From NCBI GenBank assembly GCA_963695545.1, contig OY968796.1, positions 1,856,001-1,920,000 of the forward strand: a stretch of 64,000 nucleotides of DNA, given 5' to 3'. The stretch comes from Terriglobia bacterium. GTDB lineage: Bacteria; Acidobacteriota; Terriglobia; Acidiferrales; UBA7541. Under the pieces are notes generated by a model that saw only the letters and a program-made list of their open reading frames with translations, was not told the DNA's origin and did not search any database. Positions 883-30,803 of the stretch are shown piece after piece. Numbering within the stretch: the stretch's first letter is position 1; each line of letters opens with the position of its first letter. Both the position numbers and the translations under genes were made by a program.

Positions 883-3800
883 TCAGAATTGAAGCGCGAC
901 GGACAATTGGAACTCGCGCGGGCTGCCTATCGTCTTGTCGGTTATGCCCAAACCGCCGGGGCAGTTGTAGAAGGAGCCGTTCGTGGGGCCGCTGCCGGTG
1001 CAGGTGTTGGGCAACGCGGGCTGACCCTCGATTGGAAAGCCGTTGTAAAATTCGTTCTGGAAAACGTTGTCGATGGGGAGGTCAAAGCTCGGCGTGTTGG
1101 TAATGTTGTAGACGTCCAGGCTGACCCTTAAGTCGAGGCGCTCGCCGATCTTGGTCATTTTCACGACGGAAATGTTCGCGACGCGTTGCCAGGGCTGCCG
1201 GAAAATATTGCGCTCGCTGGTCTGGACGAAGTTCGTCTCGTATTCATCGCCGGGGGGAATGGCCCCGTTGAGCGCACCGGGAGCGAGCGTTTGAACGCCG
1301 AAGCACGAGACGTTCAGCGCGGGGTCGTTTGGATTCGTACCGTTTGTGCCGGTGACCGCGCTTTGGGCCGTGCAGTTGCCTACGAGGGGAACGACCGGGT
1401 TGGTGATCCCGTTGGCGACGCCGTAGAAGATGCTGCCGACGGCGCCGGTGTAGTCGACCACGCTGTAGGGCTGTCCGCTTTGGATCGTGACGATGCCATC
1501 AAGCGACCAACCATCGATGAAGACTCCCATCAACGACGCCTCCGGCGCGAAACTGTGCAGCTCGTATCGGAAGTCGAAGTTGATCACGTGGGTGCGGTCG
1601 AAGTCGGATAGTCCGTATGCACTGTGCAGATTGAGAGGATTATTGCCGTTGTAAAAGAGACCCATGGCACTCTGATCGTCCATCGATCGAGAAAGCGTGT
1701 AGGAGACGCCGGCCTGGAGACCGTGGCTCATGCGTTTTTCGAAGTGCATTTGCAGAGCGTTGTACACGGAGACGCCGGCGGCGGTATACATTTCCGACTC
1801 CCCCGCATAGCCGATATACGGAACGCGCAAATCGGTGTTGCCACCCTCAAAGGTCTCAAGCTCCTGCCCCTGACCGTTGGGGAGGGTGATGGGACTACAT
1901 CCAGCGGAACTCGAGCAGTCGGTAAGAACCGTGTAGCCGTACGTATAGTCCTGTCCGTGAATGGGTGCGGTAGGCGTGGCAATGCCCGGCTGGTTGAAAG
2001 GAATCGGAACCACTTCGTGGCGTCCGAGAGCATTCACGTATCCGATGTCGATAGCGATGTCGCTGCGCGGCTGCCACTGCACGTCGAAGGTGCTGGCGAT
2101 ACTGTACGGCAGCTTGTTGGTCGGCGCGTAGGAAGCCAAGGAAAGCGGCTGCGCGCCGTCTTCGATTGCAGCCATATTCGGCAGAGAGTTGACGATGGTC
2201 GCCGGATTTCCCGATGGAGCCGCTTCCTTGGTCGGGCCCCATGGATTTGCGAAGGAGTAGCCCTGGGAAGGATCGCAAATGGCCGGGAAGTAGAAGGTTG
2301 CTGTTTCCGCGGGGCAGACCTGCGTGGCCACGGCGGGAGGAGCCTGGTTCACGCCGAACGGTCCGCCGGTGGTCTCGCCCGCGGTATAGCCCGGCGATAG
2401 ATACGTAAACAGTTCTCCGCGATCGTAATAGATTCCCGATCCGGCTCGAATCACGAGTTTGTTGTCGAATTTCTTGGGACTCCAAGCAGCGCCGAAGCGA
2501 GGCGCGAAGCCATATTGCCGGCCCGTCAGGGTGGTCTTGCTCTCGCCGGGCGTTGGGAACTGTGCGTTGTTTCCGGCTACGACAATTCCGGTTTCAGGGT
2601 TGCCGTTTGAATCTGTGTTGAACGCATCTGTGTTTTCGTTAAAGGAATAGTCCCCCGGATTGAAGTTGTAGATGTGGCCGTATTTTTCGGTGAGGCCGCC
2701 ATCCCAATCGACGCGCAGACCGAAGGTCAGGCTGAGATTGCTGCGAATCTGAAATTTATCCTCAATATATTCACCCATTTGATTCGCGCGATAGTAGCGG
2801 CTGGCGTCGCCGACCAGGAACGAGGTGGTGTTGAAGTTGTAGCCGGGGATAGGTGTGACGATTCCCTGCAGGAAGTCGGAGAAAGTGGGGAAAGCGATCA
2901 TGCCCAACTGCGTGCGGTTGTCGCGCGTGTTCAGCTGGGTGTACGAGAAGTTCCCGCCGAAGGTGATGGTGTGCTTGTTGTGAATCCAAATCGCGTCGGC
3001 CGATGGCTCGAAGCGATTCTGGAACACGCCCGTCAAATCTCCCTGCGACGCCGAGCCGGCGCCAAAAGTCATGGCTTGCGTATAGGGTAGGGTAGACGTT
3101 TCTCCAAGTGTGTCCACGATGCTCATGCCAGGGAAAAAACTCGAGCCGAACGTGTTGATCGTGGAAGCTGCCGGTGTTGCGCCAGTGAGTTGCTCGACGT
3201 AAGTCGCCAGGCCGTTGGGAGTGAAGGGCTGGCTTTCGGAACTATAAAGCTTCTCGCGGTCGAAGCCGAAGATTTCCGTGACGCTCAGATTGGATCCAAT
3301 CATCTCCGAGTTGTTGAGCGAGAATACTTGGCTGCCGGCCGTGAGGTGCTGGGTGAATCCCGCGAAGCTCGAATAAGCGTACGGCGCGATGCTGGGATCA
3401 TCCTGGTAGTAATACTTGGCCGCCACGGTGTGCGTCGGGCTTGGGTCCCAATCGAGATCGGCGACGCCCTGATGCGCGATGAAATACGCAGTGCCCGGGA
3501 CAAGCGCATCTTCCGGAAATGCCGTCGAGGGCGTGCTTCCGTTAGCCGACGGGATCAGGTACTGGCCGTTGGGAAGCTTGTAATTCAAAAGTGCGTAGGC
3601 GATCGGATTGATGTCGCCGGTATTGAGCGTGTTTGCCTCGCAGGCTGTAGACTGGCACACGCTACCCGAGACAGTGTCAACCGATCCCACGAAGCCATCA
3701 GGGAACTCACTATTGGCTAAATTTGCCAAAGTTTGGGCGGAGCGATCGTTCGTAAGGCCCGGAGGAACGGTGGTGCGCGAAATGCCGATTTCCTGATCGG

Positions 3801-22423: not shown

Positions 22424-24094
22424 TCAAGACACCGCGTATTCCTTTTCTGCCTTGATCATCCAATCCGGTTCCGGGTTCAGAGCAAACTCGGGATATCCAA
22501 GTTGGCCCATTTCCGGAATGTCCAGACCGGCTATCTCTGTCTCGATCGAAACTCGCTGTCCGATCACGAATTCCAGAGCGAGGTTGACGAGGAAACTGAA
22601 GGTGAAGACGAATCCGATGAGCGTCGAAATGCCCACAAGCTGTGCGGCAAGCTGGCTGGCATCGCCGTAGAATAGTCCGGTGACCGAACCGGTGACTCCG
22701 TTCCACGCTCCGCCGTAGTTGCTTGTGCCGTCGGCAAGAAGCCCGACGGAAAGCACGCCCCACAGACCGCAGGTCCCGTGCACCGAGATCGCACCGACTG
22801 GATCGTCGACCTTCATGACGTTCTCGATGAAGGAGCAACTCAAGACGACCAAAACGCCAGCCACGAGGCCGATGATGCAGGCCCCGACGGTGCTCACGAA
22901 ACCGCTGGGCGCGGTAATCGCAACGAGGCCCGCGAGGAGCCCGTTGCCGCTCATTGAGTAGTCCACCTTGCCGTTCTTCATCCACATGAACAGCATGGCG
23001 CCGAATGTGCCGGTGCAACCGGCAAGCATCGTGTCCACCGCGATCGTGCCGATCCGCAGATTTCCTGCGGCGGACGCACCCAATGTGCTGCCGGGATTGA
23101 ATCCGAACCAGCCGAACGCCAGGATGAAGCAGCCGATCAGCACGGCCGAGACGTCGTGGCCGATGATCGGGTTGCCCGAACCATCGCGGTTAAATTTTCC
23201 GATGCGCGGTCCGACGATGATGCTGACAGCGAGCGCCGTAATTCCCCCCACGGCGTGCACCACACCGGAGCCGGCAAAGTCACAGTAGCCCTTGCCCAGT
23301 TGGTTGTTGACGCCGAGTTGGGAGAGCCAGCCGCCGCCCCAAGCCCAGTTGCCATAGATTGGATAAGTGAGTGCGCCCATGATCGAAGAAGACACGCAGA
23401 ACGCCAGAAACTTCCAACGCTCGGCGCATGCTCCGGTCACGATGGTCAGCGCAGTGTCCATGAACACCATCTCGAACAGGAAAATCACCATCACCCCGAC
23501 GTCGTACGTGTGGCCGGAGAGAAGGTGGCCGGTCCATCCGAAGAGGCCCCACGTCTTGCCGAAGAGAGAGAATGTGTGCTCGGCAGAGAGCGACTGAAGT
23601 CCTCCGAGGTTACCGTTGCCCGCGGCTCCGCCCATTTGTATGGCGAAGCCCATTAACCAGTAGGAGAACAGACCGCACGCGTACACCATGAAATTCATCA
23701 TGTACGTATGATTTGCGTTCTTCACGCGGGTTAAGCCCGATTCCACCATCGCGAAACCCGCCTGCATGAACATGACCAGGAAGCCGGTGACGAGCGTCCA
23801 GACGAAGTTGATCGCGATCTTGTTTTGTCCGACTTGGTTGGCCACATCCGGAAGCGTGAGCCCGGTGGTGGGATTGGAAACCGGTACATCGTTGATTGTT
23901 CCGGTGATCGTCCCGCCTGGATCGCCCTTCGCCAAGTCCGCCACGGTAGGAGCTTTGGCTGCCCCCGCCGCCAGTTCAGCGGTTGAGGCGGACGTAGGCG
24001 CCGCAGCTGGAGCCGGCGTCTGCGCACGTAGCGCGATCCCCGCAGCGAGCGTGATGATTGCGAGGCCGAAAAAAAGGTTCCGCATTTTTTTCAT
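22424..24094 (-). CDS. amt: Ammonium transporter (Amt family) with signal peptide and extended N-terminus
   Basis: MQAGFAMVESG, GACAER, DFAGSGVVH, GWFGFNPGS, DDPVGAISVHG (both pore His retained), GLD tail. Confidence 0.96.
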   Translation of the reverse strand: MKKMRNLFFGLAIITLAAGIALRAQTPAPAAAPTSASTAELAAGAAKAPTVADLAKGDPGGTITGTINDVPVSNPTTGLTLPDVANQVGQNKIAINFVWTLVTGFLVMFMQAGFAMVESGLTRVKNANHTYMMNFMVYACGLFSYWLMGFAIQMGGAAGNGNLGGLQSLSAEHTFSLFGKTWGLFGWTGHLLSGHTYDVGVMVIFLFEMVFMDTALTIVTGACAERWKFLAFCVSSSIMGALTYPIYGNWAWGGGWLSQLGVNNQLGKGYCDFAGSGVVHAVGGITALAVSIIVGPRIGKFNRDGSGNPIIGHDVSAVLIGCFILAFGWFGFNPGSTLGASAAGNLRIGTIAVDTMLAGCTGTFGAMLFMWMKNGKVDYSMSGNGLLAGLVAITAPSGFVSTVGACIIGLVAGVLVVLSCSFIENVMKVDDPVGAISVHGTCGLWGVLSVGLLADGTSNYGGAWNGVTGSVTGLFYGDASQLAAQLVGISTLIGFVFTFSFLVNLALEFVIGQRVSIETEIAGLDIPEMGQLGYPEFALNPEPDWMIKAEKEYAVS

Positions 24095-24144
24095 CTTTAT
24101 TCTTCGCTCCTAATCGTAAGATTGCCGGCGAGAGGCCGGCCCGT

Positions 24145-24537
24145 TCAGCTTTTCTTCCAAACCGCGTTCTTATTGAATGCCGCTGGCAAAACCACGATGA
24201 TCCCGAACAGACTCACGGCGATACCCACCAACGCAAGGGCAATTCGCCCGCCGGTGCTGGGAGTGAGGTGCATGCCGAAGAGCGTGATCACCCATCCCAG
24301 CGCTGCTACTGCGGCGCCGACCAATTTCATCGCGAGTGGGTTGGACTTGAGTGCGGTCTTGCCCTCCAGCGACTTGATACTCCACATTCCGAACAGGCTA
24401 CCGACCAACCCCGCCCCTCCGACGATCATGAGCACCGTGCCCGTTCCGCTGGGAGCGTAGTAGATGCCGGCACAAAGCACGGTCGCTGCCGCCAAGAACA
24501 ACGCGTAATAGTTTCCTTGCGATTTGTTCGCTGCCAT
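24145..24537 (-). CDS. Small 4-TM membrane protein of unknown function directly upstream of amt
   Basis: GAGGAGG RBS; four hydrophobic segments in 130 aa. Confidence 0.75.
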   Translation of the reverse strand: MAANKSQGNYYALFLAAATVLCAGIYYAPSGTGTVLMIVGGAGLVGSLFGMWSIKSLEGKTALKSNPLAMKLVGAAVAALGWVITLFGMHLTPSTGGRIALALVGIAVSLFGIIVVLPAAFNKNAVWKKS

Positions 24538-24772
24538 TAAACCTTTCCTCCTCGACCCGAAAGGGTCATTTGCGAAGTAGCAAGTCCCGTATAACTTTCA
24601 CGCTTTCCCGTGGTCCCATTGCGCCCTGGTCCAGCCAGAAGCGACACCGATACAGATTGGCCCTCGTTGTCAAAAAGCTACTTTCTTCACGGCTGGATCT
24701 TGTCGCGTCGCGCGCCCGACTGAATCCGCGTCTTCAGACCGCGGAGAATGGCGCAAACGCGTACCGGGTGTT

Positions 24773-25081
24773 TCATCTTGTCCTCGCCACTTCCGGTGCT
24801 TGCGCGCGTGTTGGCACCGCAAGAAACATCACGAACTCCATCGCGACGGTCATCTCGGCGACCATGGGAGCTCCTCTCTGCGCCCGTATTACGAGGAGGA
24901 GTGCGACCATCGAAAACCACTGCCAACGGGACCGGCGCAGCCGTTCCAGGCGCGCCGGCAGACGAAACAGATTCCCAAACTCCAGTTTTCCACCGTCAAC
25001 CGCGGGTACGCTCGTGCGCAGGCAGGCGACAGCAAAAAACCCCGCAAGTATTATCTCGACAAGAAAATTCTGGTAACCCAT
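24773..25081 (-). CDS. Small hypothetical membrane protein
   Basis: GAGGGGG RBS; hydrophobic segments; co-oriented with neighbours. Confidence 0.6.
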   Translation of the reverse strand: MGYQNFLVEIILAGFFAVACLRTSVPAVDGGKLEFGNLFRLPARLERLRRSRWQWFSMVALLLVIRAQRGAPMVAEMTVAMEFVMFLAVPTRAQAPEVARTR

Positions 25082-25111
25082 GAATCCCCCCTCGTGTTGG
25101 GCCTCGACGGA

Positions 25112-25606
25112 CTAGGCGTGGCTTGAAATCCCCAGAGCCACTTCTTCTCCCATCGAGTCCTCGGCCGGCATGCTCACCAAAATCTCTTCCTCAAGCGAAA
25201 ATCGCAGACCAAAAAGTTTGGCCCGCATCGGCAGTGAACGTATTCTGGAAGCCACCTGATCGTGTCTCTTGATCGTGCCCGCGATGATGAGTTCCAGTGG
25301 CGCGCCCGCCGTGTATCGGAAGACCCGAACGCACGCCATGTGAAGATCTGCGAAGGCCCAGAACATGAACTCACGCACCCGCAGTGCGTCTCGCAGAGCT
25401 TGCGCGGAGGAATTGCGCTGCCCCACGCTCGGCGCCAACTCCGCGTCCCACTGATCGGCTGGCCGCGCAACCCAGTCGCATTCGGCGTAATCGCCGCGCA
25501 GTTCTATCCGCAGTAGCCTCAGGGGAGCGCGGGAAAGGTCGCCGTATTGGGCGCGCATCCTGAATTTACGGGCAAAATCGCCAACTTCACTCAAGCGCCT
25601 GATCAT
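25112..25606 (-). CDS. Hypothetical cytoplasmic protein (about 164 aa)
   Basis: GGGAGGG RBS before MIRRLSEV; the ORF-track extension to 25927 is low-complexity and probably leader. Confidence 0.6.
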   Translation of the reverse strand: MIRRLSEVGDFARKFRMRAQYGDLSRAPLRLLRIELRGDYAECDWVARPADQWDAELAPSVGQRNSSAQALRDALRVREFMFWAFADLHMACVRVFRYTAGAPLELIIAGTIKRHDQVASRIRSLPMRAKLFGLRFSLEEEILVSMPAEDSMGEEVALGISSHA

Positions 25607-25964
25607 CGCTCCCTCCCTTCTGTTGCCCGCGTCCGAGATCCGGTCACCCTCAGCCGTTGCGCCGCCGCTCGTTCTCTCAGACGGCGGCAATTGTGCGTAC
25701 CGCGGTCGAGCGGCCAAGACTCGCTCGTGGCTCGCAATCGGGCGAGTAGATCGGTCCCCGCGCTCCGAGGGTCGCAGCGCGGCGCTCTGGCGGGCCCTGG
25801 GAGAGATATTCAAAAACTTTCTTTCCGTTTCTTGACTCAACGCTTTTCTCCGCGCGACTACTTTTTCCCACTCTGGAGGCAATGAGCCTACCGCCGAGGC
25901 GCAAACAACACGCCCCGCCCGTGCCACGGACGGTGTATGAAGACACGTCCGCGAAATTCGTTTT

Positions 25965-26081
25965 AGCTCGGCGTCGAGCCTAATTTAGCGATTGGTTCGG
26001 ACACGGCGTCGTGTCCGCGACAACTGAGAAGGGATTCCTCATCTCGGCAACGAGCGAGGAACTGAAGGCATCTTCGCCTTC
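25965..26081 (-). promoter_or_regulatory. Putative ANTAR-target RNA: four tandem hexaloop hairpins in a 5' leader
   Basis: Minus strand: GAAGGC-GAAGAU-GCCUUC (26081-26064); CUC-GUUGCC-GAG within UUCCUC/GAGGAA (26061-26035); CGGACAC-GACGCC-GUGUCCG (26017-25998); GGCUC-GACGCC-GAGCU (25980-25965). All are C-G closed with G at loop positions 1 and 4; adjacent to an ANTAR gene. Confidence 0.7.
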
Positions 26082-26087
26082 GTGCGG

Positions 26088-26116
26088 AGATTGCAATGTT
26101 TCAGAAGAAGAGTCAA
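26088..26116 (-). promoter_or_regulatory. Candidate sigma70 promoter for the hairpin leader
   Basis: TTGACT-N17-CAATCT on the minus strand; predicted start near 26081 coincides with hairpin 1. Confidence 0.45.
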
Positions 26117-26146
26117 ATGCAAACTTTGAATCAAGTCAATCGAATC

Positions 26147-27157
26147 CTATGACACTCCAGCAGAGGCCGTTCGCTTCCTGGATGCTGCGGAAATCGGAGC
26201 GGGAGTGCGCTTCAGGTCGTCGCTCAAAATGATTGCTTCGGCGATCTCTCTCATCGACTTTCGCCTTTCCTGGCTTTCGCGCTGAATAGTCCGGTAGGCG
26301 GAGTCTTCGGAAATTTTCAGTTCAGATTGCAATATGCCTTTCGCGCGTTCGATCAGCGTCCGCATTTCCAATTTCTTTAGAAGCAGAGAGTTCTCGTTTT
26401 CTAGCCGGACTCTTTCGATTTCGGAGCCCACCAGTACGCCAAGCGTCGCGATCAGGGTGATTTGGCGCTCGCTATATTGATGTTGTTTCCGATTCTGTAC
26501 GTTTACGACGCCGATCAACTTGCCGCCACTGACCACCGGGACGGACAGAAACGCTTCGAACCGATCCTCGGGCAATTCATTGAATAGCTTGAAGCGCCGG
26601 TCCTCGTAGGCGCGCTGCGCGACGACCACGGGTTCCCGATTCACGGCGACCCAACCGGTGATTCCTTGTCCCATTTTCATTGCCAAGCGGTCTACAACTT
26701 CGGGATGTGGATTCTTGGACGCTCGCAGGACGAGCTCGTCTTTTTCGAGCACGTAGAGCATGCACGAATCGCACTGCACGGCGGCGGTCACGAACTTCAC
26801 GACTTCTTCGAGGACCTCATGCATTGGAGCGGCCGCGGACAAGCGAACGGCGAGTCGATTCAGGAGAACAAAATCGATGTCGCGATTCGTCGCGCCGTTG
26901 TGGTCTCGGCTTACCGGAACTAAAGTCGCCCGCTGCAAGAGAGCCACCAAGAGCCTCCTGTTCGTATACCTTCCACTTTGAAGCGACAGCCATGTCCGCG
27001 CGATCACGGTGGAAATGTCTGCGTTAAAGGTCGATTTTATCCTGGCGCTTCGCGAGAGCATCGCCGTCTTTCGGGGCGCCCAGGCTATCTTTTGGCTAGG
27101 GTAGGTATCATCGGAGGGTCTTGCTGCGATAATACGGTCAGCCAGAATGCGGTCCAT
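26147..27157 (-). CDS. GAF-ANTAR RNA-binding regulator (true start probably downstream of 27157)
   Basis: GAF: GQGITGWVA..REPV...FLSVPV..GKLIGVVNVQ; ANTAR: RTLIERAKGILQ..LKISEDSAYRTIQRESQERRKSMREIAEAII. Confidence 0.92.
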   Translation of the reverse strand: MDRILADRIIAARPSDDTYPSQKIAWAPRKTAMLSRSARIKSTFNADISTVIARTWLSLQSGRYTNRRLLVALLQRATLVPVSRDHNGATNRDIDFVLLNRLAVRLSAAAPMHEVLEEVVKFVTAAVQCDSCMLYVLEKDELVLRASKNPHPEVVDRLAMKMGQGITGWVAVNREPVVVAQRAYEDRRFKLFNELPEDRFEAFLSVPVVSGGKLIGVVNVQNRKQHQYSERQITLIATLGVLVGSEIERVRLENENSLLLKKLEMRTLIERAKGILQSELKISEDSAYRTIQRESQERRKSMREIAEAIILSDDLKRTPAPISAASRKRTASAGVS

Positions 27158-27176
27158 GGGAGATTAATTCGCGCGT

Positions 27177-28568
27177 ATGGACGCCTACTCCATCTATTCC
27201 GAGACCAATCGGACTGCTCTGCTGGCGACGAGCTTAATTCTGATATTCGCGATCGCGGTGATCGATGTGGTCACTCCGAGTTTTCCGCTCGGGTATCTAT
27301 ACCTCCTTCCAATTCTTCTTGTCTCTGGATTCTTGGATCGCGAGTGGATTACCATTATCGTGATCCTCTGCGCTTTCTTGACGGCTGCTTTGAGCCGCTA
27401 TGAGTTCAAACAAGCGGTCGTCCTTTTCCTGATGGCCTTGACCGCTTTTGGTGGCACGGGCTTTTTCGTTTCCGAGGTCGTTCTAAATCGCCAAAAAGCG
27501 CTCGATTACATTCGGAAAATGGAAACCGAAATACGCTTGCGGCGGGAAACTGAAGACCAACTGCTCGGACTCGTTCAAAGTAGCCCGCTCGCGATCGTAA
27601 CCATCGGCGCGAACGGGGAAATACTCTTGGCCAACGACGCCGCCCAGAACTTGTTCGCTCCTGGAGACGCTCCGATTCCAGGCCAACCGATTGCGCAATT
27701 TCTGCCCGCCCTGCAGTCCGTGACGCAGCAATCCCGCTCGCATCTTTTTCGTACACGCATTCGGTGTCGGGGACAACGCAAAGGTGGCGAAATGTTCCTC
27801 GCCACGGTTTGGTTCTCCACCGCGCTGACCGCAGTCGGACTGATCGTTTTAGCGATTATTATCGATTTTTCCGAAGACGTCCAGGATCGGGAAGATCTGA
27901 GCCTCGAGCACCTCCTGAAGAATGCCAGAATCCTAGTGGGCGCGATCTCGCACGAAATCCGAAATTTATGCGGTGCCGCGTTGATCGTATTTAGAAACCT
28001 CTCTCGAGTCCCCGAACTGTCGCGCAATGAAGATTTCAATGCGCTCGGCGCATTGATTGGCGGACTCGAGAAATTATCGACGATGGAGTTGAAGCCGTCG
28101 TCGCTTCAAGACCTGGGTGCTGTCGAGCTGTTTTCGGTACTGGATGAATTCCGGGTTGTCGTCGAGCACGCTTGCCGGGAGTCCGGCATCAAAGTGATTT
28201 GGAACGTACAGGAGTCTCTGCCATTGGTGACCGGCGATCGGTACGGCATGCAGCAGGTTTTCCTAAACCTTGCGCGAAATAGCCAGCGCGCAATGGAAGC
28301 CACCGCTCGCAAAGAACTCGCGATCACCAGCGAGGTCAGTGCGGCGTCCGTCGTGCTCCGTTTTGAGGACACCGGCATCGGCGTGTCGGATACATCCCAG
28401 TTATTCCGGCCATTCAATGAACGAGGTACCACCGGCCTTGGCTTATATGTTTCACGCGCGATTCTCCGCAGCTTTCACGGCGACCTTCAGCACGAGGAGC
28501 GCACCGAAGGCTGTTCGTTTGCTGTTACGCTCGAAAGATTCGTTTCCTCGGAGGATGACGGCGCGTGA
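27177..28568 (+). CDS. Membrane sensor histidine kinase (about 4 TM + PAS + HisKA + HATPase)
   Basis: PAS SSPLAIVTI..NGEILLANDAAQNLF; H-box SHEIRN; N-box QVFLNLARN; DTGIG; LFRPF; GLGL. Confidence 0.9.
   Translation: MDAYSIYSETNRTALLATSLILIFAIAVIDVVTPSFPLGYLYLLPILLVSGFLDREWITIIVILCAFLTAALSRYEFKQAVVLFLMALTAFGGTGFFVSEVVLNRQKALDYIRKMETEIRLRRETEDQLLGLVQSSPLAIVTIGANGEILLANDAAQNLFAPGDAPIPGQPIAQFLPALQSVTQQSRSHLFRTRIRCRGQRKGGEMFLATVWFSTALTAVGLIVLAIIIDFSEDVQDREDLSLEHLLKNARILVGAISHEIRNLCGAALIVFRNLSRVPELSRNEDFNALGALIGGLEKLSTMELKPSSLQDLGAVELFSVLDEFRVVVEHACRESGIKVIWNVQESLPLVTGDRYGMQQVFLNLARNSQRAMEATARKELAITSEVSAASVVLRFEDTGIGVSDTSQLFRPFNERGTTGLGLYVSRAILRSFHGDLQHEERTEGCSFAVTLERFVSSEDDGA

Positions 28569-30726: not shown

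Positions 30727-30803
<77 letters not shown>

Follow-up and report, generated by a model that had tools for sequence, protein, structure and literature searches.

The stretch of DNA analyzed here is a 64-kb window (coordinates without a genome prefix are its positions) of a 4.16-Mb source genome, designated G000. Its minus strand carries at 26147..26950 a gene whose profile matches (PF13185 and PF03861) identify a GAF-ANTAR one-component regulator of about 266 amino acids; the likely start is at 26950 or 26947, with a Shine-Dalgarno sequence ahead. The gene ends 66 nt before a cluster of hairpins, beyond which, on the same strand, follow orfX (25112..25606), the first gene of an operon in the window, encoding a 164-aa conserved protein of no known family; orf102 (24773..25081) and orf130 (24145..24537), encoding a conserved small protein and a conserved hydrophobic protein, both likewise of no known family; and the ammonium transporter gene amt (22424..24094; PF00909, TIGR00836). 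The genes orfX, orf102, and orf130 (25606-24145, minus) travel together with amt; orfX stands ahead of orf102 in the window and in the locus L075, and behind it in most relatives. This downstream operon, absent from the original prediction, is presumably what the hairpins regulate. A Ser/Thr kinase gene is situated near both amt genes of the source genome (29285-30235, minus, in the window and G000 ~150600-156400), and also upstream of the operon in several relatives.

ANTAR dimers, for instance those of EutV, NasR, and AmiR, bind tandem hairpins with hexaloops that typically have A at position 1 and G at position 4. The minus strand behind the GAF-ANTAR gene forms four tandem hairpins, H1 (26064..26081, loop GAAGAU), H2 (26035..26061, GUUGCC), H3 (25998..26017, GACGCC), and H4 (25963..25983, GACGCC), which agree with the original prediction in place, in their G1/G4 hexaloops, and in the C-G pair that closes each of them. 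The loop starts of successive hairpins are 24, 41, and 35 nt apart, and the linkers in the window measure about 2-4 nt between H1 and H2, 17-20 nt between H2 and H3, and 14-19 nt between H3 and H4. The linker after H3 (25984..25997, minus) is A/C-rich and G-poor (83 G among 720 bases over 45 leaders). Farther downstream, a hairpin with a weak terminator-like stretch (25902..25954, minus) is specific to the window and not conserved.

Folding of the minus strand of the 201-nt region 25900-26100 bore the cluster out (-82.4 kcal/mol, z -3.76, none of 200 shuffles as stable). When the 126-nt stretch was shuffled 20,000 times with its dinucleotides preserved, four C-G-closed G1/G4 hairpins never appeared, and three appeared in four of the shuffles. 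A scan of the 4.16-Mb genome with a folding filter revealed only two clusters of at least four, namely the hairpin leader and one GC-rich repeat. Under a looser 3-bp rule without the folding filter, 32 start positions qualified genome-wide, and thus the pattern alone is neither unique nor a proof, and conservation carries the case. The site was overlooked by a simple and noisy genome-wide hairpin scan without folding, because H2 has no more than three contiguous pairs. The caution, voiced with the original prediction, that G1 can pair with position 6 to give tetraloops is correct for the energy model, in which the probability of the G1-N6 pair is 0.92 for H2, 0.97 for H4, and 0.31 for H1. Among the leaders compared, A, which is unable to pair with G1, occupies loop position 6 in 6 of 15 G1/G4 H4 loops and in 2 of 12 H2 loops; the H4 count suggests conservation of the hexaloop register but not of a G1-C6 pair.

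A covariance-model search of 24000-27300 with Rfam 15, up to E 10, matched no family; at gathering scores, the sole Rfam match in the whole window was a tRNA gene (30730-30803, minus). A genome-wide pattern scan detected no second H3 in the source genome. A dual-loop match at G000 3982237 lies antisense within a coding gene and was rejected as a second site. A single H4-like hairpin without a partner hairpin was observed at G000:C1:2642649 (plus), about 60 nt before a large TonB-dependent-receptor-like gene.

The cluster is preceded by a sigma-70-type promoter, TTGACT-N17-CAATCT (26088..26116, minus; -35 at 26116-26111, -10 at 26093-26088), from which transcription had been proposed to start at H1. 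The promoter is present and conserved in register, which places the predicted +1 at about 26081, but it fails a strict consensus scan. Across the leaders, it reads TTGAC or TGGAC, 17 nt, and CA or TA..nT, some leaders having a canonical TAnnnT -10; the alignment comprises 37 non-redundant leaders (53 before filtering) chosen for having the promoter and H3. An additional conserved element upstream of the -35 (26121..26146, minus; about 20 bp from the -35), read by eye in the alignment, takes in relatives the form of an imperfect palindrome AATCGC-N-GCGATT, then AAAGTTTG, and is a possible activator or UP site. Combined with a C that deviates from the consensus at the first -10 position, this palindrome hints at a promoter that depends on an activator.

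Orthologous loci were collected via orf130, yielding 95 loci (15 genomic and 80 metagenomic) with a usable leader in 74; most relatives whose records carry a name belong to the Acidobacteriota, with titles that include Terriglobia, Acidobacteriaceae, and Acidiferrales, and since the loci share ancestry, counts overstate their independence. H3 is found behind an adjacent ANTAR gene in 37 of 38 leaders (36 by pattern and L056 by eye, L135 being without H3). Where the retrieved DNA contains no ANTAR gene, H3 occurs in 17 of 36 leaders and is degenerate in two more, several of these loci being incomplete and one being the window's own. Ten genomes were checked for PF03861: the three without it (G226, G109, and the unpublished G369) all lack H3, and hairpins are present in six of the seven with a match, the seventh, G403, having only a divergent paralog. 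The full G1 leader is kept in G202 with no adjacent cognate gene, only a divergent paralog being found, and in L046, L047, and L050 the promoter and hairpins persist before the operon with the ANTAR gene elsewhere in the genome. On the scale of the family, the H3 pattern matched in 78 of 301 genomes, a count that by its control columns includes some chance matches. A leader was identified in 17 of 20 regions retrieved around H3-pattern and ANTAR matches, in 15 cases directly behind a GAF-ANTAR gene. These leaders precede different amt genes, or an ORF with a permease-like gene, and from this recurrence the GAF-ANTAR gene, promoter, and leader appear to behave as a cassette.

The hairpins are conserved in the orthologous loci to different degrees. 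H2 (44 segments) covaries strongly, with 87% of cells paired, double changes in seven of eight pairs, and a covariation score of 0.44, higher than in any of the 500 shuffles or slid controls. Neither H2 (44/44) nor H3 (31/31) varies in its closing C-G pair. H3, the most conserved hairpin, is an 18-bp near-perfect palindrome with the inner stem ACAC/GUGU; its stem is nearly invariant, one pair being A-U, G-C, and G-U in 16, 11, and 4 cases, and this conservation is partly by construction because the H3 rows were picked by stem pattern. Its pair-count covariation measures do not rise above shuffles (reached by 255 and 36 of 500). On the minus strand, G-U cells outnumber A-C cells by 25:12 in H2 and 7:3 in H3. 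Loop position 4 is G in 33 of 35 H3, 22 of 27 H2, and 18 of 23 H4 loops with stems of at least 3 bp, and in all four window loops. Position 1 of the 35 H3 loops is G in 17, A in 11, C in 6, and U in 1, and it is G in all four loops of the window.

Two loci depart at position 4. In L132, both H2 and H3 (2943-3024) have A4 with intact stems, and the divergent GAF-ANTAR (2098-2850) is without R142, K149, and E160; decay is as likely as a specificity switch there, since degeneration extends to the GAF motifs and a search of 401 genomes turned up no close relative. A4 is likewise shared by the H2 and H3 loops of L120.

Alignment of the window GAF-ANTAR to EutV (6wsh) demonstrated that R142, K149, E160, Y164, and R175 are kept, and K143, R168, M172, N173, and R177 are changed, the positions of Met172 and Arg168 both being filled by Gln. 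According to the available text of the EutV structure paper (PMC8934654), R142, K149, E160, and Y164 read G4, A1 makes no contact in the structure, and Met172 is essential. The position of the cluster in a 5' leader and the neighboring GAF-ANTAR that keeps the G4-reading residues support the original assignment of an ANTAR-target-type RNA beside an ANTAR gene, as far as sequence allows. The sensor GAF domain is closest to that of PtsP (EI-Ntr; 3ci6, 3trc, and NF008283, E about 1e-18). The PtsP GAF domain is reported, in the accessible part of PMC4848567, to bind glutamine, and we infer that the PtsP-like domain of the window protein reads the same signal.

The residue at position 172 correlates with loop base 1. 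Among 80 GTDB loci, a GA.G hairpin of at least 4 bp occurs within 340 nt downstream in 15 of 16 cases for Gln172 proteins and in 3 of 64 for Arg172 proteins. In a tree of 72 rows, 29 of the 31 Gln rows with H3 carry G at its position 1; the 13 Arg rows with H3 carry A (8), C (4), or U (1) there, and H3 is missing from another 2 Gln and 26 Arg rows. The Gln/Arg label requires four changes on this tree, at least two of them being forced by well-supported branches; the tree is a quick one without bootstrap, contains four very long branches and few independent events, and is missing L081 from the 73 intended rows. Three Arg rows are nested in a Gln group: L193, with an A1 H3, and the identical L035 and L216, with a decayed leader. 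The correlation of Gln172 with G1 and of Arg172 with non-G1 is thus a lead and no demonstration of co-evolution. The G1 variant loops of the original prediction are found in the window but are lineage-specific and not general, Arg172 proteins going with A, C, or U at H3 position 1.

The source genome encodes a second GAF-ANTAR (G000:C1:214780-215655, plus) with Arg at the Met172 position. It follows hemD in what we take to be a cysH/hemD/siroheme neighborhood, from names read off the translations, with glnB and glnA lying some 8-10 kb away. A hairpin target was found neither near this gene nor near its relatives; there was no hairpin pair before glnB or glnA of the source genome and, by eye, none before the second amt. 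Outside the window, the cysH/hemD/GAF-ANTAR cluster and a gene resembling sulfite reductase are preceded by a 40-codon ORF with 13 cysteines (G000:C1:210802-210924, plus; in L044), which is followed by a canonical U-tailed terminator and looks like a cysteine attenuation leader peptide. In L033, about 250-440 nt past the ANTAR match, a short ORF rich in aromatic codons precedes a U-tailed terminator (by eye), a possible aromatic amino-acid attenuator.

From the distribution of hairpins across the loci, read without a rooted tree, we infer H2 and H3 to be the ancestral pair and take H1, H4, and the longer spacer for later gains of the window's clade. In 11 simpler loci (L056, L207, L208, L210, L212, L217, L220, L250, L252, L255, and L262), H2 stands directly next to H3, at a loop spacing of 28-31 nt, and the two make up an ordinary dual motif, mostly G1; in the window's clade their distance is 41-61 nt. 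A second leader class has H2 and H3 only, about 57 nt apart. H4, as a G1/G4 hairpin 32-39 nt past the H3 loop, is present in 15 of 17 Gln-class leaders; the H1 site has a loop-like motif in 15 of 17 by a loose pattern, its clean stem being confined to the window's sub-lineage. H2 is the universal first hairpin of the dual motif, and its loop is atypical in the window. In L075, the nearest relative (orf130 95% identical), the H2 loop is lost, and the loops of H1, H3, and H4 are all GACGCC. The two dimers originally proposed may bind, on H1+H2 and on H3+H4, but the universal pair is H2 and H3, with H1 and H4 as extras of the clade.

With respect to the output step, the absence of a U-tailed terminator overlapping the last hairpin, pointed out originally, extends beyond the window: there is none at H4, and no conserved intrinsic terminator overlaps the hairpins in 28 leaders. 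Canonical terminators are present elsewhere in the source genome, and Rho is encoded in it. Of 47 leaders, 32 score above the shuffle mean for terminator-like sequence downstream of H3, the positions being scattered. In the window, 25920-25910 can pair with the 3' half of H3, then GUUGUUUG follows (-17.8 kcal/mol, z -2.6); when only the first 182 nt are folded, this pairing takes the place of H3, which re-forms in the full-length fold. Such an anti-H3 terminator, convincing by eye in many leaders, was rejected after a comparison over 59 leaders, with three loci skipped (mean z +0.19, 4/59 at p<=0.05, z -0.1 in L075), and ten other segment pairings in the leaders were null against shuffles. The motif GUGYYY, which complements the 5' arm of H3, occurs 30-130 nt past H3 in 30 of 59 leaders versus 16.9 expected (window copy at 25946-25941, minus), and the hairpins before it are no stronger than background.

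Translational control, an option of the original prediction, went unsupported by either folding or RBS pairing. With the hairpins forced, RBS accessibility rose in 4, fell in 4, and was little changed in 29 of 37 leaders. No leader segments in 46 leaders pair better with their own RBS than with others, and the pyrimidine-rich 5' arm of H2 pairs with any RBS at about -9.4 kcal/mol. From the start of H3 to the start codon there are 410 nt in the window and 50-480 nt across leaders. A conserved upstream ORF was rejected, start codons following the 3' arm of H2 in some leaders only (by eye), as was a 107-codon in-frame extension of orfX, which is closed by stops in L075. The untranslated leader, about 150-480 nt long, combines G-poor linkers with hairpins predicted to form without protein. 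It offers no conserved terminator, alternative pairing, or RBS switch, and its output step is accordingly proposed by analogy.

Judging from conservation and gene context, the hairpins very probably form the 5' leader of the orfX-orf102-orf130-amt operon and serve the neighboring GAF-ANTAR protein as its RNA target. Given such a target, we lean slightly towards an activating role of binding, which would keep transcription from ending prematurely in the long leader; the complete explanation, target and activation combined, is our best one and about evenly poised. The PtsP-like GAF would sense glutamine, and at low glutamine a dimer would bind the loops, ancestrally at H2 and H3, and in the window's clade probably at H3 and H4 and at H1 and H2. 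In the bound leader, premature termination, either Rho-dependent or at weak non-canonical hairpin/GUGUUU sites downstream, would be prevented, with no overlapping terminator being broken. Activation under nitrogen shortage is tentatively favored, in both sign and mechanism, by analogy with other ANTARs and with the glutamine inhibition of EI-Ntr. Several observations count against this explanation: no conserved default-off structure was found in the leaders, whose hairpins are predicted to form even without protein; hairpins ahead of GUGYYY do not rise above background in strength; the eut linkers measure 5-12 nt, less than the loop spacings of 35 and 41 nt, and EutV antitermination is lost when linkers are lengthened (available text of PMC8934654 and PMC3369931); A1 and Met172, important in EutV/eutP, are not kept in the window leader and protein; and G202 has a G1 leader without an adjacent cognate gene.

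The same RNA target could instead have a post-transcriptional and possibly repressing output, acting on mRNA stability (for example, A/C/U-rich linkers masked from a nuclease) or on translation. The lack of a terminator, the preformed predicted hairpins, the ability of the H2 5' arm to pair with any RBS, and the repression of translation by a mycobacterial ANTAR (available text of 10.1101/660928) are all consistent with it, but the forced hairpins leave RBS accessibility mostly unchanged, own-RBS pairing is no better than cross pairing, and the start codon is distant from H3, which makes this output a rather doubtful one. Classic antitermination would require the pairing of 25920-25910 with the 3' half of H3 to act as a hidden long-loop terminator that ANTAR binding to H3/H4 prevents. 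That pairing is strong in the window and displaces H3 in the shorter fold, and GUGYYY is in excess downstream; however, the pairing is not conserved, not even in L075, the ten other pairings gave nothing, and H3 returns in the full-length fold, so that we consider a hidden terminator improbable.

Two further possibilities dispense with an ANTAR-bound leader of amt. The cluster could act on the upstream GAF-ANTAR message, as a 3' terminator, stability element, or autoregulatory site. It lies just past the stop codon of that gene and travels with it, and hairpin clusters have been proposed to terminate without U tracts (available text of PMC8355165); nevertheless, the leader has its own conserved promoter, and promoter and hairpins are kept before the operon in the three loci with the ANTAR gene elsewhere, and a role on the upstream message is hence quite improbable. 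Alternatively, H3 might be a DNA operator for a transcription factor, the other hairpins being incidental, as its stem scarcely varies, its covariation is weak, and its distance to the -35 clusters at 109-127 nt. The covariation of H2 as RNA and the excess of G-U over A-C cells in both H2 and H3 speak for RNA, however, as do the identity of the H3 inner stem to that of eutP P1, in which EutV recognizes the closing pairs by sequence, and the asymmetric H3 center in the Arg class; moreover, H3 has a single copy in the source genome and tracks ANTAR genes. An operator role thus seems very improbable.

Compared with known systems, the window leader resembles eutP of Enterococcus faecalis (available text of PMC3369931 and PMC8934654) in its C-G-closed G4 hexaloops and the ACAC/GUGU inner stem of H3, equal to that of P1, and its protein resembles EutV in the four residues that read G4, with nitrogen genes and ammonium transporters among the predicted targets. 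It differs from EutV/eutP in having G1 for A1, Gln for Met172 and Arg168, a GAF sensor instead of a receiver domain, and four loops with spacings of 24/41/35 nt and no terminator overlapping the last hairpin. In eutP, mutations of A1 reduce induction, and the P1 closing pairs are sequence-specific for EutV (PMC3369931, available text). NasR/nasF of Klebsiella oxytoca and NasT/NalA of Pseudomonas (accessible parts of PMC7496416 and PMC10783516) similarly place nitrogen uptake or assimilation under ANTAR control, and NasR is likewise a one-component sensor, with a C-G closing pair selected by SELEX; unlike the window leader, these systems use A1/G4 dual loops, an intrinsic terminator, and a nitrate signal via NIT or NasS. 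The actinobacterial ANTAR targets, as covered in the available text of PMC8164766, likewise have a high-GC host and mostly no terminator; their linkers measure 2-25 nt, and their A1 and G4 are only >50% conserved. Rv1626/PdtaR, the best PDB match of the ANTAR domain, also has Gln at the Arg168 position, but keeps Met172. The characterised actinobacterial targets (10.1101/660928, available text) overlap the RBS or start codon and repress, whereas the start codon in the window is 410 nt off and the overlap typical of an Rv1626-type translational repressor is not seen. The sensor is most similar in sequence to the PtsP/EI-Ntr GAF (3ci6, 3trc, NF008283) but is fused to ANTAR, not to a PTS kinase.

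Since it has neither A1 nor an overlapping terminator, the leader is not filed with the classic antiterminators of EutV, NasR, AmiR, and NasT. In structure, in G4, and in co-occurrence with ANTAR genes, its sequence nevertheless agrees with an ANTAR-target RNA. Terminator-less ANTAR matches and a relaxed A1 have already been published (PMC8164766 and PMC3369931, available text). The accessible supplement of PMC3369931 gives zeros for one acidobacterium, Solibacter, and the main text of that paper does not use the word 'acidobacteria'. A literature search, which covered few subscription papers and beyond which supplements may list matches, returned no paper about this leader, about ANTAR loops with a G1 consensus, or about RNAs of the ANTAR type in Acidobacteriota, and in the available text of the ANTAR literature covered we met no characterised GAF-ANTAR one-component protein.

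We tentatively suggest, as a possibility that is less likely than not, a third mode of ANTAR control, in which a GAF-ANTAR that senses glutamine would keep Rho or a nuclease off a multi-hairpin leader lacking a terminator, and the loop base 1 that is read would be set by the residue at the Met172 position (G1 with Gln; A, C, or U1 with Arg). If this is true, a genome with two paralogs could keep their RNA targets apart, and arrays of loops would expand as hairpins are gained for another dimer. What loop base 1 and Met172 do is posed as an open question in the available text of the EutV structure paper (PMC8934654). The natural Gln/G1 and Arg/non-G1 pairs, along with the minimal dual and four-loop forms, make both specificity and terminator-independent output testable by swaps, and the loci hint at a way in which ammonium uptake may be gated in the Acidobacteriota that abound in soil.
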